Source: a phage
Direction: 5' to 3' (one strand)
Length of the DNA stretch: 18,895 nt
Sequence record: PZ049716.1
In this document: piece after piece, positions 5,733-18,895 of the stretch
How positions within the stretch are numbered: position 1 is the stretch's first letter
Layout: each line of letters opens with the position of its first letter
Notes under the pieces: model-generated
What the model saw: the letters and a program-made list of their open reading frames with translations, nothing else
Databases searched by the model: none
What the model was told of the DNA's origin: nothing
Position numbers and translations under genes: made by a program

Positions 5733-6574
5733 CAGCCGTCCATCCGTAGTGCGTAGTAGTCATTGAAACCGGTTCTGGCCACATCCTGGATCACGACCCA
5801 GTCGACGCCGGCGACCGACACGGTGTTCTCCACCGCATTGTTGAATCCCGTAATCTGAGCCACCCCATCGAGATAGCCATAGATGCCGTTGGCATCGCTC
5901 AGCTCTACCGGGGTCACCGAGTACGTTCCCTCGGTATCACGCAGCTGGGTTGTGGCTCCGGCCAAATGGTCGTTGTTCCACGGGTAGCACTCGGGCTGAA
6001 GCCAGACACCGCTGTTGAAACGCTGGCGCATATTGGCCCTGGCGCCTTTGTACGGCATTGAATGTACGGTGTCCGAGAATCGGGTGGCCGGAGTACCGCT
6101 GAGCATGCCGGCACAGATCAACGGATCGCGGTACTGACCTGGGCTTGCATAAGGCAGGAACTTGCCCACGTAGCAGCTCTCGTACACCGGTGTGCCCACC
6201 TTCATCGCCAGGGCTATGCGCTGCGGGTTTACCGTCAGCCAGTAGTCGATGCGATTGTTGTGCGCCGGTACTCCGCTGAGCATGGCACCCGGCTGAGTAT
6301 CAAATGAGTTGCTGGGCACGTACCCCATAAAGCACCCCGCCACCAGATTGTAGTAGTCCGCGCTGACGTCCTGGTACGTGCGGAAGCCGACGAAGATCTC
6401 CTCCTCGCCGGTGTAGCCCGCGCCCTTGAGGATCAGCTCGCGGTTGGCCGGGGCGGTGTCGTAGCGCAGCACCGTCCAGCCGTTCGCCGAGGCGAAGTCG
6501 CGGATGGTCTGCAGCATCTTGTAGTGGGCAAGCGTGCCGCCCGAGTTGTCGACGAATCCGATCTGGTGAGGCAT
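5732..6574 (-). CDS. Putative tail protein (280 aa), immediately after the tape measure gene
   Basis: ORF track; ATG at 6574 lies 1 nt after the tape measure stop; N-terminal region paralogous to the 317-aa protein. Confidence 0.45.
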   Translation of the reverse strand: MPHQIGFVDNSGGTLAHYKMLQTIRDFASANGWTVLRYDTAPANRELILKGAGYTGEEEIFVGFRTYQDVSADYYNLVAGCFMGYVPSNSFDTQPGAMLSGVPAHNNRIDYWLTVNPQRIALAMKVGTPVYESCYVGKFLPYASPGQYRDPLICAGMLSGTPATRFSDTVHSMPYKGARANMRQRFNSGVWLQPECYPWNNDHLAGATTQLRDTEGTYSVTPVELSDANGIYGYLDGVAQITGFNNAVENTVSVAGVDWVVIQDVARTGFNDYYALRMDG

Positions 6575-6575
6575 A

Positions 6576-9047
6576 TCAGAGTCCCAGTAGCTGGCGCACT
6601 TCGGCGCCGTTCTGTTGCAGGTAGACGAGGAAATGCTCCTGCCCGGGTTTGCTCCAGGCAGCGGCCGCCACGTCCTCGGGGCGCTGGACGGCGTACAGGT
6701 TCACGCTGTTCTTGAGGTTGGTGCTCATGCCCTTGGCCGGCTCGGCCAGGCGGGTGTTTGCCAGCCCAGGCGATGGCAAGGCCGGTGCCGGCACGCCTGC
6801 AAGGCCACCGGTCGAGTGACGCACGCGGTAGTCGTTGACTGCAGCCATGCCTCGGGCGTTGAAGTCGTGCAAAAAGTTCAGCGCACCAGGTTGCTGCACA
6901 ACAGCTGCACGGGTGACGAACTCGTAGTTCGATAGCCAAGCCGGGATGCTGTCGCTGGTGGTAGTACCAGGGCCGGTGATATGGCCACCAGTGGAAGCGG
7001 CTACTGCCGCAACCGATGCAGCACTCGAAAGCGCATTGCTGGTCGAGCTGGCCACCTTGGCGCCGGCGATCGCCGACGCCATCGCTGCAGCTGCAGATGC
7101 CCCAGCCGATGTGATTGCGGTACCCATAGCAGTCGCAGCCGTCGTGCCACCAGCTGTGATCCCTGTGCCCATTGCCGTGGCGCCGGCGGTCGATGCCGTG
7201 GTGATGGCCGTTGCCGTTGCCGTTGCCGCGGCCGTCTCAGCCGCTGCATCAGCACCACTGCCGAACATGCCCATCACACTGTTGGTCAGCCCTTCAGCCA
7301 GGTTCTTCGCGGCCATCTGCGCCAGGGCATCGGCCACGCTCTGGCCGAGGGCGGTGACGGCCTCGCGCAGGTTCATGGTGCCAGTTGCCAGGCCAGAAAG
7401 CGCCGAGGTCAAGCCGCCCTCGATGCCGGTGCGCAGGGTCTCCTGCAGGAGCGTGGTGGTAGCGAGCAGGCGGTTGGCCTGGGCGTCGAGATTGTCCAGC
7501 GCCTGCTGGGCGGAGGCGCCGATCGCACCGGGCATCTGCGCCATCTCAGCCAGCAGCGGGCGAATCTCCTGCAGCTGAGCATTCGTCTGGCGGTGGATCT
7601 CCAGAATCCGCTCGCGCGCGCCGACCTCGCTCAAAAGCCCGGCCTGCTGCTCGGCCTGCACCGATTGTTCTTGGCGGGTCTGCTCGGCCAGCACTTGGTC
7701 GTACAGACGCTGGATCTCGTTGAAGCGGATCTGCGCCTGCTCGACGTTCACCAGGCTGTTGATGATGTTCAGGCCGGCGGTGTCACCGTTGGCCTGCAGG
7801 CGCTGCATCAGTTCGCCATAGCGCTGCTCGATCTCGATCGTCAGCGCCTCGGCGTCGCGGCCCTCGGCGCGCAGCAGCTGGGCGCGCAGGCCGGCGATCT
7901 GGCGGGCGTCAGCATCGAGCTGCTGCTTGCGCTCCTCGGCAGCGATCAATGCCTGGGCGGCAATGGCTCGATCGCGCAGCGCGCCGGTCAGGCCCTTCTC
8001 GGCCAGCTCGTAGGCGCGCACCTGGTCAGTGCTCAGGCCGAGCAGCGCGGCGCTACGCTCCAGTCCGCGCACGTATTGTTCCTGCTGTCGGGTCTGCTGC
8101 TGGCTGGCCTGGGCGGCGGCCTTGCTCGCTTCGCCACTGGCGCGCTTGGCATCGATCTCCTGGGCGTAGCGCAGCAGGGCCTGTTGCTGGGCGGCGTCCA
8201 GTTCGCCCAACTCGCCGCGCTCGATGGCGTAGCGCACGCGGGCGGCTTCACTGGTGACGCCAAACAGCTCGGACTGTTTTTGCAGGTTGGTAAGGAGTTT
8301 GTCGTATTCCTTGTTCGCCGCCTTGACCTCTTCGGTCTCAGTGGTAACCGGGATCTCTACTGTCGGCTTGGCTGGCGCATTGCGCAGCACGTCCTCGATG
8401 CGCTTGATCTCGGCGCGGATCTCATCGTCGCTGACAAAGCTGATCAGCCCGTCATCGCCGAAGAAGCGCAGGCGCTCGCCGAGGTTGAACAGGCTGTCAT
8501 CAGCGAGCAGGCCGCGCAGGTCTTCGAGACGCTGCTGCAGACCGTCCACGTTCGAATCAGCGACGTCGACGCCGAGGCGGCCCAGGAAAGCGAGAAAGTT
8601 GCCGCCCTCGGCCGCAGCAGCAGCCAGGGAGCCAGTCAATCGCACCAGGCTACTGACAAGCGAATCAACACCCTGTGCGGTCGCCGGGTCGCTCAGCACC
8701 TGGGTGAGCTTCTCGATCTCTCCAGCTGACTCCTTGAGCCCGCCCTTGGCCTCCAGCAAGTCGCCAAACGCGTTCTTCAGCGCCTGGATACTGCCACCCA
8801 GGGTTTCGCGAGCCGCGCGAGCACTGCCGCCCATCTGCGTCTCTAGCTCGGCCAGAATGATCTTCTGTGCATCGAGAATCCGCCCGGACTCGACCAGGGT
8901 CTGTATCTGATCCTTCTGTTGCTCGGTGAACTGCACGCCAACGCGCGTCAGTGCGGCCACACCCTGGATGGGATCGTTGAGCGCCTTACCCAGCTGGATG
9001 GCCGAGGACTTGAGGTCTTGACCCATTGCGGTGCTCATATCGAGCAC
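6576..9047 (-). CDS. Tail tape measure protein, main segment (frame continues upstream of the GTG the track uses as start)
   Basis: 823-aa ORF; N-terminus MSTAMGQDLKSSAIQLGKALNDPIQG is the conserved tape-measure core; long coiled-coil middle; Ala/Thr/Gly-rich low-complexity C-terminus. Confidence 0.75.
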   Translation of the reverse strand: MLDMSTAMGQDLKSSAIQLGKALNDPIQGVAALTRVGVQFTEQQKDQIQTLVESGRILDAQKIILAELETQMGGSARAARETLGGSIQALKNAFGDLLEAKGGLKESAGEIEKLTQVLSDPATAQGVDSLVSSLVRLTGSLAAAAAEGGNFLAFLGRLGVDVADSNVDGLQQRLEDLRGLLADDSLFNLGERLRFFGDDGLISFVSDDEIRAEIKRIEDVLRNAPAKPTVEIPVTTETEEVKAANKEYDKLLTNLQKQSELFGVTSEAARVRYAIERGELGELDAAQQQALLRYAQEIDAKRASGEASKAAAQASQQQTRQQEQYVRGLERSAALLGLSTDQVRAYELAEKGLTGALRDRAIAAQALIAAEERKQQLDADARQIAGLRAQLLRAEGRDAEALTIEIEQRYGELMQRLQANGDTAGLNIINSLVNVEQAQIRFNEIQRLYDQVLAEQTRQEQSVQAEQQAGLLSEVGARERILEIHRQTNAQLQEIRPLLAEMAQMPGAIGASAQQALDNLDAQANRLLATTTLLQETLRTGIEGGLTSALSGLATGTMNLREAVTALGQSVADALAQMAAKNLAEGLTNSVMGMFGSGADAAAETAAATATATAITTASTAGATAMGTGITAGGTTAATAMGTAITSAGASAAAAMASAIAGAKVASSTSNALSSAASVAAVAASTGGHITGPGTTTSDSIPAWLSNYEFVTRAAVVQQPGALNFLHDFNARGMAAVNDYRVRHSTGGLAGVPAPALPSPGLANTRLAEPAKGMSTNLKNSVNLYAVQRPEDVAAAAWSKPGQEHFLVYLQQNGAEVRQLLGL

Positions 9048-9475
9048 CGTCTCCAGGGCGCGGGGAACACCTCGCGGCCGATCTTGGTGAAGGTGAGCAG
9101 CAGCGACTGAGCCGGGATCACCGCTTCATCGCCGTAGGTGGTCACCTGCTGCATGGCGCTGGCCATCTCCAGCAGTTCGTCGCGGGTCAGGCCAGCGGCA
9201 CCCTGAGTAGAGCGAAGGGTTTGTTCAAGCTGAGCAGTTACACGCTCCTGCTCGATGGTGGCGCTGATCACCGCCTTGTAAACGGCGCCGCCTGCAAAGG
9301 CAGCAACGACATTGCCGATGGTCTTGCCCAGCTTCTCCATATCGCGGCTGGACGACTGGGCCTGCTGGCCGTTGGCCTCGACGGCGCCCTCCAGCTGCTT
9401 CAGCTCACCGATCGCCTGCTGCAGATCGGCGCGGATGCGCATTGCCAGTTCGAGGTTCTTGCCTGCCAGAGCCAT
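9035..9475 (-). CDS. Tail tape measure protein, N-terminal segment (146 aa) separated from the main segment by an apparent frameshift
   Basis: ORF track; ...TRDELLEMASAMQQVTTYGDEAVIPAQSLLLTFTKIGREVFP is the first half of the same conserved core domain that continues in the 6576..9047 frame. Confidence 0.6.
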   Translation of the reverse strand: MALAGKNLELAMRIRADLQQAIGELKQLEGAVEANGQQAQSSSRDMEKLGKTIGNVVAAFAGGAVYKAVISATIEQERVTAQLEQTLRSTQGAAGLTRDELLEMASAMQQVTTYGDEAVIPAQSLLLTFTKIGREVFPAPWRRCSI

Positions 9476-13029: not shown

Positions 13030-13923
13030 TCAGGCCAGCCACGGGGTGACGAGCACGTCGACCACGTCGCGGTTGATGTTGGTGGCGCCGGCCGCGTTGC
13101 GCTCGGCCTTGACCACTTCCAGGGCAGTAGCACGCATGCTTGGCGGCACTACCAGCAGCTTCGGACGGATACCCAGCGGCCGCGCGTTGTCGCCCTTGAG
13201 TTCCTGCATGGCGGCATAGGCCGCGTTGAAGCTGTCGGCATCCAGCGCTTCCTTGGAGGCGTAGGCCAGCTGCCACAGGCCATAACCGACGTTCAGGCGT
13301 GCATCCACGCCCCACACGAACTCCTTGCGGTCGAACACGTTGGAGTCGGTCTCGCCGGTCTTGGAAACGAACTGATAGTTCTTGCGCTTCTGCAGGATGA
13401 TCGGCCGCATCATGCGAGTGACGTCCAGCAGGAACCACGCCGTACCGCTACCACCCTGGAAGTTGCTCACCGACGTTTCCTGGCCGTTGGCGCCGATCAC
13501 CGGGTGGTCGGTGTCGAAGAAGAACTGGCCGTCGTAGCACTTGCCGGTGAAACCGTTTTTCAGATGGGCATAAACCAGCTCGGCCGGGTGCTCCTTGGCG
13601 TCCTGGCCCAGTTGCGCCATCAGGGTGTTGTAGGTGCCGTACTGATCGTCCTCGATCGCCTCGCGGGGCACGCCCACGGTGTTCTCGAACGTCTTGTTCT
13701 TGATGCTGTAGTCATGCAGCGCCAGGTTCTGGATCACGCGGTCGCCCAGCCACTCACGGAAGCGGGTGGTAGCTCCCAGCCAGCCGTAGGTTTCGATGGC
13801 GGTGCCGGACTGCACTTCCATCACGATCTGGTCATAGTCGATCACTGCGCCCTGAAATGCGCCTTGGAACGACGCCTTATAGCCGGTGTGCAGGATGGAG
13901 AGGTTTTGCTTGTTGATGATCAT
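13030..13923 (-). CDS. Major capsid protein, Mu gpT-like
   Basis: ORF track; 297 aa, MIINKQNLSILHTGYKASFQGAFQ...; GGAG Shine-Dalgarno upstream; typical size and position after the protease/scaffold gene. Confidence 0.7.
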   Translation of the reverse strand: MIINKQNLSILHTGYKASFQGAFQGAVIDYDQIVMEVQSGTAIETYGWLGATTRFREWLGDRVIQNLALHDYSIKNKTFENTVGVPREAIEDDQYGTYNTLMAQLGQDAKEHPAELVYAHLKNGFTGKCYDGQFFFDTDHPVIGANGQETSVSNFQGGSGTAWFLLDVTRMMRPIILQKRKNYQFVSKTGETDSNVFDRKEFVWGVDARLNVGYGLWQLAYASKEALDADSFNAAYAAMQELKGDNARPLGIRPKLLVVPPSMRATALEVVKAERNAAGATNINRDVVDVLVTPWLA

Positions 13924-13937
13924 CTGAGTCTTGCTCC

Positions 13938-14345
13938 TTAGATCTCGACCCAGACGCCATCGCTATCCACATCGCGGATAACGCCGGCAACCGAGCGGGT
14001 GTTGGTGGCGGAGGTCTTAGCGACCGTCTGGTCGTCGACGATGTAGGCCGTGGCGCCGATATCGGCACGGGTGATCTCGTCGGCCGAGGCGCTGTTGACG
14101 AACGGGAACACGCCACGGCGGGTTTCCACGCGCAGATCACCAGCGGCACCGGCGGAGTTATCGACGTACTCCTGTGCAACCCCACGGGCTTTCAGGGTGG
14201 CGGAGGTGCTGCCCGGCACGGCGAAACCCGAGGCGTTGATGCACACCAGAGCACCAGCGAAAACCTTGGTGCTGCCGGCTACCGGGTCGGAGTACTGCAC
14301 GCCATCACGGCGCTTGGTGTTGCGGTCTTTGGTCAGCGCAGTCAT
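13938..14345 (-). CDS. DUF2190-like head structural / decoration-type protein (135 aa)
   Basis: ORF track; GAGGAG Shine-Dalgarno; glycine-rich beta-type pattern GVFPFVNSASADEITRADIGATAYIVDD...AGVIRDVDSDGVWVEI; sits between protease/scaffold and capsid genes. Confidence 0.45.
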   Translation of the reverse strand: MTALTKDRNTKRRDGVQYSDPVAGSTKVFAGALVCINASGFAVPGSTSATLKARGVAQEYVDNSAGAAGDLRVETRRGVFPFVNSASADEITRADIGATAYIVDDQTVAKTSATNTRSVAGVIRDVDSDGVWVEI

Positions 14346-14348
14346 GGC

Positions 14349-15452
14349 TTATTGCTCCTCGGCCTTGGCGGCCTTGAACTGTTCGGCGGTCAGGTTCATG
14401 CGCGAGCACACAGCCAGCTCGTCCTGAGTCAGCCCGGTTTTCTCGTCCGCCACCGGAGGCTCACCGCCAGTCTGGCTGCGGCTCAGCGCAGCAATCGGCT
14501 TCGCCTTGTCCAGGTAGGCAGTCAGCGCAGCGCGGTTGCTCTTGCCGAGGTCGCGTGCCCACTCTTCCATCGGTTTGGCCAGGCGGCCGTCTTCCAGGGC
14601 GGCGGTGATCTGGCTGTCGAGGTCCTTGTCATCACGCTCACCCAGGCGAGCGGTCAGCGCGGCGATCTCGGCTTGCATGCCCTCGATAGCCGACACCGGT
14701 ACGAACTTGGCGGGGTCAACAGAGGTAGCGGCCTTGGCCTTGAGGCCGGTGCAGGCTGCCAGCATGGCTTCGCCACCGGCCTTTTCATCCAGGCCCAGCA
14801 GCTTGCGCAGGTTGGTGGTGTGGGCGGAGAGCGCGGCGACTGCCTGCTCTTCGGTGGTGTTCTCGGCCAGGCCGAGGGCGGCGATCAGCGCCAGCAGCAA
14901 TTGGTTCACGGGGTTTTCCTCTGGGGAGTCATCGAAACAGCCGAACGACGCGGCGGCGCGCAGGCTGAGTTCCTGCATGCCGTCGATAGCCGGGGCATTG
15001 GTGAGCGCGCCCATCTGCACGTCCAGGACGTCGCCGGTGGTCGGGTGGTAAAGGAACACGGGGGAGAAATACTGGTACTCGCCCTCGGCGATGTACTGCG
15101 CGGCGCGGGCAGTCAGTTGCACCTGGGCAAACAGGCCTTCGCCCTCACGCCACTCCAGGGCCTGGTACCAACCTGCAGCTGGAGCGGGCTGGCCGTTCTC
15201 TTCCTTGAGCAGGGTCTGGTGTTCGTAGTCGACCACGCGCTTGTTCTTGCGAGCGTGGAAGCGCTCGATGACCTTGGTGGCCACTGCCTGGTTGATGTGC
15301 CAGGACGGCACCTTGATCTCGCGGCCATCTGCCGGCAGGAAATGGCCAGCCGGGGTCACCTGAACCCAGATGGTGTTGTCGGCAGCCGGCGCCCCCAGTA
15401 CGAAACTGCAGGCGGCGAGTGCAACGGCGAGAGGGAGGCGTTTTGTCTTCAT
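14349..15452 (-). CDS. Head maturation protease / scaffold protein, Mu I/Z-like
   Basis: Start trimmed to first ATG (MKTKRL...); VDYEHQTLLKEENGQPAPAAGWYQALEWREGEGLFAQVQLTARAAQYIAEGEYQYFSPVF matches the Mu gpI protease signature; C-terminal half is charged and helical, scaffold-like. Confidence 0.7.
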   Translation of the reverse strand: MKTKRLPLAVALAACSFVLGAPAADNTIWVQVTPAGHFLPADGREIKVPSWHINQAVATKVIERFHARKNKRVVDYEHQTLLKEENGQPAPAAGWYQALEWREGEGLFAQVQLTARAAQYIAEGEYQYFSPVFLYHPTTGDVLDVQMGALTNAPAIDGMQELSLRAAASFGCFDDSPEENPVNQLLLALIAALGLAENTTEEQAVAALSAHTTNLRKLLGLDEKAGGEAMLAACTGLKAKAATSVDPAKFVPVSAIEGMQAEIAALTARLGERDDKDLDSQITAALEDGRLAKPMEEWARDLGKSNRAALTAYLDKAKPIAALSRSQTGGEPPVADEKTGLTQDELAVCSRMNLTAEQFKAAKAEEQ

Positions 15453-15482
15453 GCCGGCAGCTTGGCGCTGCGGGCCGGGCAA

Positions 15483-15503
15483 GTAATTTTGACGGGGCAA
15501 AAA
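15483..15503 (-). repeat. 21-bp motif copy B (plus-strand gtaattttgacggggcaaaaa)
   Basis: Lies ~30 nt upstream of the protease/scaffold ATG and just downstream of the cassette terminator. Confidence 0.6.
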
Positions 15504-15569: not shown

Positions 15570-15887
15570 TCAGCGCACGCGCAGGGCGTGGTCGGCGGGG
15601 TAGTCCAGCAGGGCCAGGGTGTTGTGCAGGGCTTGATCGGCCAGCTCCTGCACTTTGTAGGCCTGCTGTTCCAGGTCGCCGGCCAGCACGTCCACCAGTT
15701 GGCACAGGTCGCTGCGCGACACATGGTCGAGCATGGCCGGGGTTTCGTCGCCTTCGGCATCCACCGGCAGCGGCACGGCCAGCAGTTGTTTCAGGGCGCT
15801 CAGGGCGCCCATGCGTTCGGCCAGGCGGCGCGCTGCAAAAGCGTTGATGGCCGCCACCTGGTCGGGGCGCAGCTCATGCAGGCTCAT
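15570..15887 (-). CDS. Acidic hypothetical protein (105 aa), no recognisable family; candidate accessory / anti-defence effector
   Basis: ORF track; ATG overlaps the stop of the Bro-N gene (ATGA at 15884-15887); about 16 Asp/Glu against 8 Lys/Arg; followed by a terminator. Confidence 0.5.
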   Translation of the reverse strand: MSLHELRPDQVAAINAFAARRLAERMGALSALKQLLAVPLPVDAEGDETPAMLDHVSRSDLCQLVDVLAGDLEQQAYKVQELADQALHNTLALLDYPADHALRVR

Positions 15888-16597
15888 TGCTCACCATCCT
15901 TGCTGCTCAGCGGCAGCAGGGCGACGGCGGCGGCCTGTTGCAGGTGCCGGCCAATGCGGTCGAGCTGGTCGGCCAGCGGCTGGTTGTGCGCCGAGTTGCA
16001 GAAGCGCTGGGCCAGGCGCTGCTGCTGCTCGATCAGCCGCGCCTGCTCGTTCTCCAGGTGCTTGGCCGCCACGGCGGCCAGCAGCTCGGGGCTGCACTGT
16101 GGGCTGCCGGCGGCGGGGCTGAACTGGTACTTGGCGTGCAGCAGCAGGTTGACCGTGGGTTTGGACAACCCCAGCTGGCGGGCGATATTGGCCTGGCTCC
16201 AGCCGCCCACGAACAACTCCAGCACCCGCCGTTCTATTTCGCGAGTGACCAGCACGCGGCCGCTGGGCGCTTTCGGTGGAGCCATAAGGGCATCGAGGAT
16301 GTCCAGCACCCACTTGCGGAACTCGGCTGCCACCGGCGTGCGGGCGAACATGCCCAGCAGGTGGGCGCCGCGCAGGGAGAATATACGGGTTTGTTGAATA
16401 CCGCCGGCAGTCTGCAGATCGACTAAGGCGGTCATGCCGTCGGTGAACTCCGCAGCATTCTTTTCGTACAGCTTCCAGATAGCGTGATCCGGCCGTGCAT
16501 ACCCCAAGGCACCTCCGATCTGGAGGCCCCTTAGCCAATGCTGGCCATTGCGGTCGATAACGTCGAACTGGGTATCGCGGAAGGTGAGCGCTTTCAT
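15884..16597 (-). CDS. Bro-N domain protein with central helix-turn-helix and C-terminal coiled coil (237 aa); putative regulator / antirepressor
   Basis: ORF track; GGAG Shine-Dalgarno 7 nt before ATG 16597; N-terminus TFRDTQFDVIDRNGQHWLRGLQIGGALGY...EF...GGIQQTRIFSLRGAHLLGMF...AAEFRKWV matches Bro-N; GWSQANIARQLGLSKPTVNLLLH is HTH-like. Confidence 0.6.
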   Translation of the reverse strand: MKALTFRDTQFDVIDRNGQHWLRGLQIGGALGYARPDHAIWKLYEKNAAEFTDGMTALVDLQTAGGIQQTRIFSLRGAHLLGMFARTPVAAEFRKWVLDILDALMAPPKAPSGRVLVTREIERRVLELFVGGWSQANIARQLGLSKPTVNLLLHAKYQFSPAAGSPQCSPELLAAVAAKHLENEQARLIEQQQRLAQRFCNSAHNQPLADQLDRIGRHLQQAAAVALLPLSSKDGEQ

Positions 16598-16605
16598 GGT
16601 GGGAC

Positions 16606-16680
16606 TCCGTAAGGTTCAGTCAATGCCTGATGGATTAGTAGCCCATCAGGTGGTCGGGACTCAACTAGGGCCTTACGGAC
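16606..16680 (-). promoter_or_regulatory. Nested inverted repeats and promoter-like elements immediately upstream of the Bro-N gene
   Basis: Outer inverted repeat ccgtaagg (16607-16614) / ccttacgg (16671-16678); inner perfect palindrome cctgatgg-9 nt-ccatcagg (16626-16650); minus-strand -35 TTGAGT (16659-16664) and -10 TACTAA (16635-16640) with 18-nt spacer; the 3' arm of the outer repeat abuts the Shine-Dalgarno sequence. Confidence 0.45.
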
Positions 16681-16730
16681 CCCTGGCGCTTCTTCCCCCG
16701 AAGGGTGTTGTATCCGCGCTCTCATCCCGA

Positions 16731-16762
16731 CCATAAAAGCAAACGCCAGCCCGAGGGCTGGC
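16731..16762 (-). terminator. Intrinsic terminator inside the G / Bro-N intergenic region
   Basis: Minus-strand GCCAGCCC-TC-GGGCTGGC stem followed by GTTTGCTTTTAT. Confidence 0.5.
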
Positions 16763-16812
16763 GGCAGGCGGCGTGGTCAGTGCCGTGGCTGCCGTAAGGT
16801 TTAGTGCCTAAA

Positions 16813-16841
16813 ACACTAGCCCAGCGTTACCACCTTGGCAA
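16813..16841 (-). promoter_or_regulatory. Sigma-70-like promoter candidate on the minus strand
   Basis: -35 TTGCCA (16836-16841), 17-nt spacer, -10 TAGTGT (16813-16818); lies ~50-70 nt upstream of the terminator at 16731-16762. Confidence 0.3.
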
Positions 16842-16860
16842 CAGCTTTTCCATTTAAGGC

Positions 16861-16960
16861 GTCGCCGAAACGGCGACACCCGGCGCGGATGCCGCCAAAG
16901 GGGTGGTCAAAATGGCGACCCCTTTTGATGACACTACATTCGTCGCCGTTTTGGCGACGA
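16861..16960. promoter_or_regulatory. Array of operator-like palindromes with GGCGAC arms
   Basis: gtcgccg-aaa-cggcgac (16861-16877), half-site ggtcaaaatggcgacc (16905-16920), tcgtcgcc-gtttt-ggcgacga (16940-16960); centre-to-centre spacing ~40 bp. Confidence 0.45.
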
Positions 16961-17167
16961 AACCCCCAAGAAGGAAGCTCGTATTTTCGCCGGTTTTCCC
17001 GGTTTTCCCAGGCTCTGGCCCAAAACTCACTCCAGGCCTGATGCAGAGCCGTGTTTATAAACGCCCAAACAGCCCCGGAAAGGGCCAGAGGCACCCGGAT
17101 ACATACAACGGCAGCCCCCTGGGGGCCTTAAAACGCTTCTACGGGCCTTTGCGGCGGTTTGCGGTTT

Positions 17168-17656
17168 TCAGCCCTGCAAACGGGCCTGCAGGTGATCGCG
17201 GGCGATGGCGATGATCTCCGCTGCGTCATCATCGGAGATACCGAGGAACGGCCGCGCCGGAATGTCGCCCCAGGGGATGGGCGCGCCGCGACGGGTTTTG
17301 CCGAAGGCGCCCTTGAGCGCGCCGAACTGATGCACCGCACCGTATACCCGATCGGTGCCCACCAGCAGGGTGGCGCCTTCGACCTGCGGGAAGATCTGCC
17401 GCACAAGATCGCCACGCCGCTGCAGGATCTTGCCAGGGTTCGGCGACTTGGTTTCCAGGTAGCGCGGGCTGAGTGACTTCCAGGTCTGGCCATCCGGCCC
17501 GCGTTGCGCGCTGAAGCGGTCGCGGGTGCTGTTGACCAGCGCCTCGCCGATGTCCAGCAGCATCGGCCTTGGGTCAGTCAGCTCGGCCAAGGCGCCGCGA
17601 ATAGCCGACAACACGGCGGCGTTGTCGAACTCCAGCTCTACCCGTGCGCCGCTCAC
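17168..17656 (-). CDS. Virion morphogenesis protein, Mu G-like (162 aa)
   Basis: ORF track (GTG start overlapping the upstream stop); LLDIGEALVNSTRDRFSAQRGPDGQTWKSLSPRYLETK...VGTDRVYGAVHQFG matches the Mu gpG signature. Confidence 0.7.
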   Translation of the reverse strand: MSGARVELEFDNAAVLSAIRGALAELTDPRPMLLDIGEALVNSTRDRFSAQRGPDGQTWKSLSPRYLETKSPNPGKILQRRGDLVRQIFPQVEGATLLVGTDRVYGAVHQFGALKGAFGKTRRGAPIPWGDIPARPFLGISDDDAAEIIAIARDHLQARLQG

Positions 17657-18177
17657 AGCTCACCCTCCAGCAGCACCAGTTGCCCGGCCTGCAGGCGGCG
17701 GCGCACAGCAGCGATATCCAGCGCCTGCTGCACGCTGTTGGCCCCGGTATCGCCGCTCACCTGGTAGCGCACGACAAGGGCCAGGTCATCGCCATACACA
17801 TACACCAGGCTGTTGCTGCCGGCATCGAGCAGCACGGCGCGCGGCCGGGCCAGTGCGGCGGGTACGCTACCGAAGCGCTCGGCGGCGACGGCACGCGTAT
17901 CGCGCGCCTTGCCGGCCAGCATGCGCAGCATAGCCACGTCGCTGATGCCGATTACCGCCGTCAGCGGCGTTACCCCGGCGCCGGCCAGGCCGGTGACCAG
18001 GTTCGGGCTGATGCTGCCCACCAGCATGCTGCGGCCGCGATCCACGCCGTCCATCACCACATCATCGAGCAGGCGGCGCCAGTCGTTGTCGATCGCCCGG
18101 CTCACAGCACCGTGCTCCAGCAGCTGCTGCGCCATGCTCGCGGCCGGCGCTGCCGGCAGGCGTTCGGTCTTGCTCAT
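17653..18177 (-). CDS. Hypothetical protein (174 aa) between the F-like and G-like genes
   Basis: Start trimmed to the first ATG (18177), which overlaps the F-like stop (ATGA); its stop overlaps the G-like GTG start; fills the gap exactly; no family recognised. Confidence 0.5.
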   Translation of the reverse strand: MSKTERLPAAPAASMAQQLLEHGAVSRAIDNDWRRLLDDVVMDGVDRGRSMLVGSISPNLVTGLAGAGVTPLTAVIGISDVAMLRMLAGKARDTRAVAAERFGSVPAALARPRAVLLDAGSNSLVYVYGDDLALVVRYQVSGDTGANSVQQALDIAAVRRRLQAGQLVLLEGEL

Positions 18178-18863
18178 GCTGAGTTGCACCTGGCGCTCCA
18201 GGGCGCTGCGACCTGGTGCATAGCCCCAGCCGGGTCGATACCTTCGGGCACCTCAACGATCTCGCCCTTGTACTCGATGCGCCGCGTCTGGCTGGCCGGC
18301 GCCTTGTCCGGGCCATCCTTGCCCAGGCGCTTGAGGTCGCGCTCGTTCAGCGCCCGCACCCGGCATTGGCAGCCCCAGCCGTTGGGCGGGTAATGGGTTT
18401 GCCACCAGGGATCATCCGCCGGGATCACCAGGCCGTGCCACGCTTCATGCTCGGGGCGCGGGGCGATCACCGCATCGCTGTGCTCGTACATCCAGTAGGG
18501 CCGCGTGGCCTTCACCTCCTGCAGCTGCTGGTAGCGGCCGGCGGCGTAGCTGGTGCGCAGGTTCGTCTCGTAGATCACCCGCGAGCGCCAGGCGCGGCCG
18601 CCATCTGGCTGCCAGCCGTAGTTGTCCAGGACGGCGGCGAAGTCCTCGCGGAACGCCTCCAGGGTGTCGCCGTTGTCCAGGGCGCTCTGCAGCACCTGCT
18701 GAATATCCGCCACCATGTCAGCGCGGTGAGCCCCGGCCACCACGAAGGCGTGGTCATGCGCGGCGCCGCGCACGGCGAAGTAATCCACGCTCGGCAGCTT
18801 GCGGCGCAGGAACTCGTTCTGCTCACGGAACGGCAGGCTGCCGTAGCTGGCGGGTTCGGCCAT
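18174..18863 (-). CDS. Head morphogenesis protein, Mu F-like / SPP1 gp7 family (229 aa)
   Basis: ORF track; GAAHDHAFVVAGA...GRAWRSRVIYETNLRTSYAAGRYQQL...RPYWMYEH...PRPEHEAWHGLV...PPNGWGCQCRV matches the Mu F domain. Confidence 0.75.
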   Translation of the reverse strand: MAEPASYGSLPFREQNEFLRRKLPSVDYFAVRGAAHDHAFVVAGAHRADMVADIQQVLQSALDNGDTLEAFREDFAAVLDNYGWQPDGGRAWRSRVIYETNLRTSYAAGRYQQLQEVKATRPYWMYEHSDAVIAPRPEHEAWHGLVIPADDPWWQTHYPPNGWGCQCRVRALNERDLKRLGKDGPDKAPASQTRRIEYKGEIVEVPEGIDPAGAMHQVAAPWSARCNSA

Positions 18864-18864
18864 C

Positions 18865-18895
18865 AGCGCACCTCGTCCTCGATGTTCGTTACGCC
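18865..18895 (-). CDS. 3' end of the upstream late gene (probably portal), only the last 10 codons in the window
   Basis: Minus-strand frame ...GVTNIEDEVR-stop with TGA overlapping the F-like ATG (TGATG); portal inferred only from the usual Mu-type gene order. Confidence 0.3.

Follow-up and report, generated by a model that had tools for sequence, protein, structure and literature searches.

A 174-codon open reading frame between the F and G genes of a Mu-like Pseudomonas prophage is very probably the severed back half of the F gene

The open reading frame of 174 codons at positions 17653 to 18177 of the window (the whole 18,895-nucleotide stretch of phage DNA analyzed here, record PZ049716.1) is very probably the back half of a gene for a minor head protein of the Mu gp30/F type, severed from the front half by a 1-nucleotide (nt) deletion that is private to this sequence. 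The element is a B3/Mu-like Pseudomonas siphophage-type prophage, and the window sequence is a disrupted or mis-sequenced copy of a member of the Mu F/gp30 type. Judged by its conservation, the reading frame (ORF174 below) is real coding sequence and not a chance ORF, with 94 to 96% amino acid identity to the C-terminal half of intact F and a dN/dS of 0.14 to 0.20. The original prediction had described a separate gene of an unassigned family, tightly coupled between F-like and G-like genes, and had proposed a detached F C-terminal domain, a capsid-delivered cargo protein, or an accessory protein. The features discussed are as follows.

17168 to 17656, minus strand: G-like virion morphogenesis or tail completion gene, 162 amino acids (aa), Pfam Phage_tail_S at 1.5e-32.
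17653 to 18177, minus strand: ORF174, the 3′ half of the F gene, with an ATG start and a TGA stop, 174 aa; residues 230 to 403 of the intact 403-aa protein, comprising the helical linker region and the MuF-C domain.
18174 to 18231, minus strand: out-of-frame tail of the truncated F ORF, AGAMHQVAAPWSARCNSA followed by TGA, as seen in the three-frame translation, the tblastn frame switch, and alignment A3.
18232 to 18234, minus strand: frameshift site, C3 on the minus strand (GGG on the plus strand), one base short in comparison with relatives.
18232 to 18863, minus strand: 5′ half of the F gene, codons 1 to 211, with the MuF domain (PF04233) at aa 53 to 169 and the start of the conserved GIDPGW linker.
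18864 to 18895, minus strand: 3′ end of the portal gene, with an extra A in comparison with relatives (minus-strand AA at 18886 to 18885, alignment A5).
6576 to 9475, minus strand: tape-measure gene, with a 1-nt deletion that turns C5 into C4 (minus-strand CCCC at 9065 to 9062, alignment A2).

All genes at the right end of the window lie on the minus strand. They follow the order portal, F, G, with the portal 3′ end aligning to the portal genes of relatives, and the same order is found in those relatives, in Mu, and in B3. The layout that had suggested a separate gene is present in the letters as described: the ATG of ORF174 (18177 to 18175) shares an ATGA with the TGA of the 229-aa ORF at 18863 to 18174, and its TGA (17655 to 17653) shares a GTGA with the GTG start of the 162-aa ORF at 17656 to 17168. 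With a GTG start at 18189, as given in the ORF listing, the product would be 178 aa long. The naming of the neighbors as F-like and G-like also held, with the Phage_tail_S match of the 162-aa protein on one side and, on the other, a match of the 229-aa ORF to Pfam Phage_Mu_F at 1e-17 (65.3 bits, against a gathering cutoff of 29.6). The 5′ half of F is further assigned to PHROG 220 (minor head protein and DNA pilot) at 9e-84. The F ORF occupies positions 891 to 1105 of the PHROG 220 profile and ORF174 positions 1135 to 1260; because these positions are successive, the two ORFs are consecutive pieces of one protein family.

The break between the two pieces can be placed to the base. When the B3 gp33 protein was compared with the window by tblastn, its residues 1 to 211 aligned in the F frame from 18863 to 18231 (66% identity) and its residues 211 to 418 aligned in the ORF174 frame from 18234 to 17656. 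The same switch is seen with the 403-aa F proteins of two prophages in NCBI genomes (L036 and L037), of which aa 1 to 211 are 96% identical and aa 211 to 403 are 94 to 96% identical to the window. Homology in the ORF174 frame begins at 18234 with PGWGYAPGRSALERQVQLS, 57 nt upstream of the ATG, and the 5′ tight coupling of the ORF is therefore a by-product of the frameshift. The frames switch at 18231/18234, and the last 18 codons of the 229-aa ORF are out-of-frame junk; the same stretch, 18174 to 18231, read in the other frame gives (P)GWGYAPGRSALERQVQLS, the conserved linker of intact F. On the minus strand, relatives read GAC CCC GGC TGG (with CCA in L006 and L049), where the window reads GACCCGGCTGG, a C4 run minus one C. 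DNA alignments show a 1-nt gap at this C run against eight of eight relatives (L004, L005, L006, L028, L029, L030, L031, and L032). Adding one C back yields an ORF of 1,212 nt and 403 codons that aligns without gaps to nine relatives and encodes a protein scoring 64.5 bits against Phage_Mu_F (PF04233). The dN/dS of the repaired gene is 0.07 to 0.16 for the N-terminal half and 0.14 to 0.20 for the C-terminal half, and only four substitutions specific to the window, two synonymous and two not, fall past the frameshift.

The two overlaps at the ends of ORF174 differ in kind. The GTGA junction between the F stop and the G start is the same junction that intact relatives have, and this side of the proposed tight coupling stood. 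The ATGA at the other end is incidental. The ATG of ORF174 is Met230 of the intact protein, and the same ATGA occurs in frame, as an internal Met codon, in L004 and L005; the codon at this position is Leu in L006, B3, and JBD67, and the ATGA itself is absent from L006 and B3. The apparent translational coupling to the F ORF is therefore accidental.

Every examined relative with a complete F gene has it as one uninterrupted ORF of 403 to 418 aa directly before G (3 from IMG/VR, 4 from Logan, 2 from NCBI, and 4 from Pseudomonas), while the window gene is split at 18232 to 18234. The three IMG/VR contigs (L004, L005, and L006) carry a 403-aa F that overlaps the 162-aa G after it by 4 nt, and the C-terminal half of their F is 81 to 93% identical to that of the window. 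In the four Logan contigs (L028, L029, L031, and L032), a 403-aa PF04233 gene lies directly before a G protein identical to that of the window; the two NCBI genome prophages also have a 403-aa F, and the more distant Pseudomonas genomes (L040 to L043) have a single F ORF of 404 to 418 aa. The portal genes of relatives (526 aa, PF06074) finish with a TGATG where F begins. A tblastn search of phage genomes with ORF174 returned 26 B3-like Pseudomonas phages with matches over the full length at 37 to 41% identity, and all 26 matches fall under the annotated F gene. B3 gp33 (418 aa) and JBD67 gp28 (416 aa) were checked directly; each is one ORF with G after it. In the relatives examined, no separate gene lies between F and G. 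The segment is a conserved part of F in homologues, which is essentially the finding that the original prediction had named as its own refutation.

A scan of genome contigs found no relative with a single-sequence query, and with alignment A3 it found four full-length Pseudomonas relatives, all with the two parts fused. Pattern scans of viral and metagenome contigs that accepted either allele returned only intact alleles and no copy of the frameshifted one. The exact ORF174 product was not on record in an exact-product look-up, and the plasmid collection gave no match. A word-index protein search with the 193-aa C-terminal half gave a single 124-aa fragment, an index of this kind being too insensitive for the family of the F C-terminal half.

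In this sequence, then, the F gene is interrupted by the loss of a single C from the C4 run (plus strand, 18232 to 18234). The F frame reads 18 out-of-frame codons into a TGA, and this TGA by chance shares bases with a Met codon inside the true frame, so mimicking a separate and tightly coupled ORF. As written, the window would give a truncated 229-aa MuF fragment and, at best, some reinitiated 174-aa C-terminal fragment without the nearly invariant PGWxYAPGR linker. Should the mutation be real, a degree of reinitiation could come from the ATGA and from an AGGTG motif that precedes the ATG by 9 nt, and the C-terminal half might still be made. The phage as written would be expected to be defective, the more so because its tape measure is also interrupted.

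The tape-measure gene is split into ORFs at 9475 to 9035 (146 aa) and 9047 to 6576 (823 aa), while relatives have one tape-measure protein of 966 to 978 aa. The tblastn alignments pass from frame -1 to frame -3 at about 9062 to 9065, and PHROG 27166 is spread over both ORFs. L036 and L037 are colinear with the window; of all their genes, translated and mapped to it, exactly two changed frame, F and the tape measure. A third indel, the extra A in the portal tail, lies in the last eight codons of the gene and is seen against eight of eight relatives that cover the site. This base would set the upstream portal frame in phase with the F ATG with no stop between them, so that portal and F would appear fused in the window, which reaches only to 18895. 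The remaining window genes are intact and 88 to 100% identical at the protein level to those of relatives, apart from mosaic segments. The F indel is read as an error or as recent decay because two further unique single-base indels lie in essential genes and the rest is intact.

Between these two causes, homopolymer base-calling or assembly error is in our judgement the probable one for the F indel. A genuine and very recent inactivating mutation in the prophage is, again in our judgement, a credible account, if not the favored one. It would make the element a cryptic prophage with recent real frameshifts in F, in the tape measure, and in the portal tail, and ORF174 a pseudogene remnant; it differs from the preferred explanation only in the cause of the indel, and we regard it as quite possible without being probable. 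The three unique single-base indels do hit three essential virion genes, homopolymer runs are also natural slippage hotspots, and related elements are integrated in bacterial genomes (on contigs of 110 kb to 1.2 Mb). However, the window contains no nonsense codons and no larger deletions or insertions, its other genes are intact at the identities given above, and the substitutions past the frameshift are as few as four, half of them synonymous. In addition, two of the three indels remove one base from a C run, as base-calling errors classically do. A total of three single-base indels within 18.9 kb draws attention either to the quality of the assembly or to a defective prophage, and either one affects other inferences drawn from this window.

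Readings in which the split has a function fare much worse. A real frameshift after which the halves are made separately, by termination and reinitiation at the ATGA, would leave a portal-binding MuF protein and a working free MuF-C protein. The stop/start overlap and the AGGTG motif would suit such an arrangement, as would the F-ORF174-G block, in which no terminator and no promoter was found. Nevertheless, the start codon is the non-conserved internal Met codon described above, the nearly invariant linker is lost from both products, no relative is split and the allele is unique, and the tape measure shows the same kind of break, one that cannot be adaptive. We consider a functional split very unlikely. 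That the C3 allele is real and the prophage viable, with MuF (229 aa) and ATGA-reinitiated MuF-C (174 aa) acting as separate polypeptides, is highly improbable; were it true, the window would be a natural experiment showing that MuF-C needs no covalent tether to the portal-binding domain for packaging or action. Full-length F could also be produced by a programmed -1 ribosomal frameshift at CCC-GGC, and the 229-aa product would then be a regulated isoform beside it. The C-terminal half does lie in the -1 frame relative to the N-terminal half, and a -1 slip after GAC CCG gives the DPGW of intact F. This candidate was nonetheless rejected as extremely unlikely, on the grounds that no slippery heptamer of the form X XXY YYZ lies at or after the site, that all relatives encode F in one frame and so hold no conserved recoding signal, and that Rfam identified no frameshift element, nor a family of any kind, in the whole window.

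An independent gene from a new family, inserted between F and G and encoding a cargo, toxin, or accessory protein, as had been suggested, would agree with the lack of a Pfam match for ORF174 alone, with the existence of MuF proteins that end in a toxin domain (Jamet et al. 2017, PMC5576092), and with the different C-terminal module, PBECR2, that sister prophages carry. Yet homology in the same frame continues upstream of the ORF174 start, and the sequence is colinear with Mu gpF and, in all relatives, with the C-terminal half of F. What follows is G and not a small immunity-type ORF, and other residues stand in place of the His and Thr/Ser that are predicted to be catalytic in the family. We give this reading next to no credence. 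The suggestion of a detached F C-terminal domain was right as to homology, which extends over F residues from about 230 to 403 and the C-terminal half of Mu gpF, and wrong as to a separately evolved gene, the detachment being the work of a 1-nt deletion. ORF174 would be wrongly annotated as a new cargo or accessory gene; the proper annotation is one F gene, marked as frameshifted or pseudo, or else entered in repaired form. Its only unusual feature is the private single-base deletion, and both the protein (Mu gp30/F family, MuF plus MuF-C) and its position (portal, F, G) are already known.

Further observations concern the window outside F. A Bro-N/Ant-type anti-repressor-like gene (237 aa, phrog_5060 at 7e-39) and a 105-aa ORF form a moron at 15570 to 16597 on the minus strand, with G on one side and the head protease on the other; the Ant-like moron is present in L031, L036, L037, and L004 and absent from L028, L029, L005, and L006. 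About 570 bp between G and the Ant-like gene (16598 to 17167) are non-coding. They include a strong terminator-like hairpin on the minus strand at 16763 to 16744, CGCCAGCCC-TCGG-GGCTGGCG, with a T-rich tail after it, and a direct repeat, ggttttcccggttttccc, at about 16992 to 17010; a simple scan of this stretch found no sigma-70-like promoter. The element is a mosaic in comparison with phage B3. Its F, G, connector, and tail genes are B3-like (35 to 66% identity), and no B3 counterpart was found by tblastn for the genes at 13030 to 15500 on the minus strand, which encode the head protease (phrog_328), a 135-aa protein, and the major capsid protein (phrog_371, Mu-like_gpT). On 22 other contigs there are proteins 100% identical to the major capsid protein, and an exact-product look-up found no record of the exact product of the major tail protein.

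In the intact 403-aa protein, a conserved GIDPGWxYAPG linker joins the MuF domain at the N-terminus to the MuF-C domain at the C-terminus. On profile comparison, the ORF174 part is the known MuF-C domain of Mu F, so the family that had been called unassigned is a region that Mu F already has. A profile of 21 sequences, trimmed to the 193 residues of the window, aligned to aa 230 to 439 of Mu gpF with an hhalign probability of 99.1% and an E value of 1.3e-18; the alignment spans 181 columns and takes in the terminal LEG motif. Among 1.84 billion cluster representatives searched exhaustively with HMMER, only 42 matched at E values up to 1e-3, and in every full-length matching protein (399 to 457 aa) the match lies at the C-terminus. 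The short database proteins that match the domain (about 160 to 180 aa) look like contig-end fragments or error-laden reads, and rare stand-alone versions of MuF-C may be among them; P0011 is exactly the last 126 residues of B3 gp33.

ORF174 by itself had no Pfam match, and across ORF174, the 193-aa extended version, and the repaired protein the only match for the C-terminal half was a chance-level one to ACP_syn_III_C. The window sequence matched neither PF18819 (MuF_C), for which it stayed under the 27.6-bit gathering threshold, nor PBECR; 7 of 10 homologues score 13 to 24 bits against PF18819, and Mu F itself scores 21 bits, all below that threshold and in register. A sequence-profile search of the PDB found nothing relevant. 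An AlphaFold2 model built on the family alignment (pLDDT 91.6, pTM 0.87) has three N-terminal helices followed by an alpha/beta core. The BECR fold is defined by an N-terminal helix and a sheet of four to five strands; in the model, a helix precedes a beta-sheet core, and its weak structural neighbors are enriched in BECR-fold toxins (RelE, HigB, ParE, YafQ, colicin D, and BrnT).

MuF-C has been assigned to a clade of predicted metal-independent RNases, phage BECR (PBECR), and is considered inactive in Mu (Iyer et al. 2017, PMC5512222). Alignment A4 shows LHxLRDxK and NxvR[T/S]A in most relatives versus MLRMLAGK and NSVQQA in the window. The predicted catalytic residues of a PBECR/BECR-fold endoRNase are thus replaced in the window, His by Arg and Thr/Ser by Gln. 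Because Arg and Gln stand where most relatives have His and Thr/Ser, MuF-C in the window lineage is probably a non-catalytic derivative, a nucleic-acid-binding or structural ex-RNase inside the head and not an enzyme or toxin. The same alignment holds a MuF-C subgroup (P0022, P0027, P0028, and P0031) in which the conserved His is displaced into G.K..RH instead of LHxLRDxK, while P0006 and the window lineage have lost both His and Thr/Ser (residues 99 to 110 and 166 to 172 of the window C-terminal half). By analogy with SPP1 gp7 and Mu F, the MuF domain would associate with the portal during prohead assembly, and intact F would carry the MuF-C domain into the capsid.

Among known systems, Mu gp30 (F) shares with the window the position between portal and G, the N-terminal PF04233 domain, the GIDPGW linker, and, by the hhalign result, a homologous C-terminal half. 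B3 gp33 and JBD67 gp28 (Beetrevirus) are orthologues at the same gene position, with C-terminal halves 40 to 45% identical to that of the window, and the 4-nt overlap of the F stop and the G start is common to the window, Mu, JBD67, and the closest relatives. The window differs in that its repaired F (403 aa) is shorter than Mu F (439 aa), in that the gene lies in two frames, and in that its lineage has no RREAGK insert of the B3 type. With the MuF-C and PBECR families (PF18819 and PF18810) it shares the place of the domain at the C-terminus of MuF proteins, although the window domain falls under every Pfam threshold; its MuF-C is probably catalytically dead, as proposed for Mu F (PMC5512222). 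The Bacillus phage SPP1 gp7, a portal-associated minor capsid protein that is cited in PMC5576092 and PMC5512222 as the only experimentally studied MuF member, shares the MuF domain and the place after the portal gene; it is without a C-terminal extension and so says nothing direct about the ORF174 part.

MuF polymorphic toxins have, like the window F, a MuF N-terminal domain and a C-terminal extension, but they are concentrated in Firmicutes (PMC5576092), whereas the window element comes from Pseudomonas. The window F also carries no toxin domain recognized by Pfam and is not followed by a small (<150 aa) immunity ORF, the next gene being the 162-aa G. Sister prophages (L034 at 6458 to 7687, L035, and L038) have a 409-aa F that shares the N-terminal 230 residues (50% identity) and ends in PBECR2 (PF18810, 1.7e-18). 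The swap point lies directly after the conserved GIDPG(W/F)xxxPG linker, the G that follows is a different one (187 aa), and the major capsid proteins of the prophages with the PBECR2-type F are identical. When the window domain was aligned by hhalign to PBECR2 of the L034 F, only the linker aligned, with no detectable homology between the two module types. Closely related Pseudomonas Mu-like prophages swap the C-terminal module of F, MuF-C or PBECR2, after a conserved linker. Together with the lost proposed catalytic residues, this swap fits the published view that MuF C-termini evolve fast and are effector or ex-effector domains delivered by the capsid.
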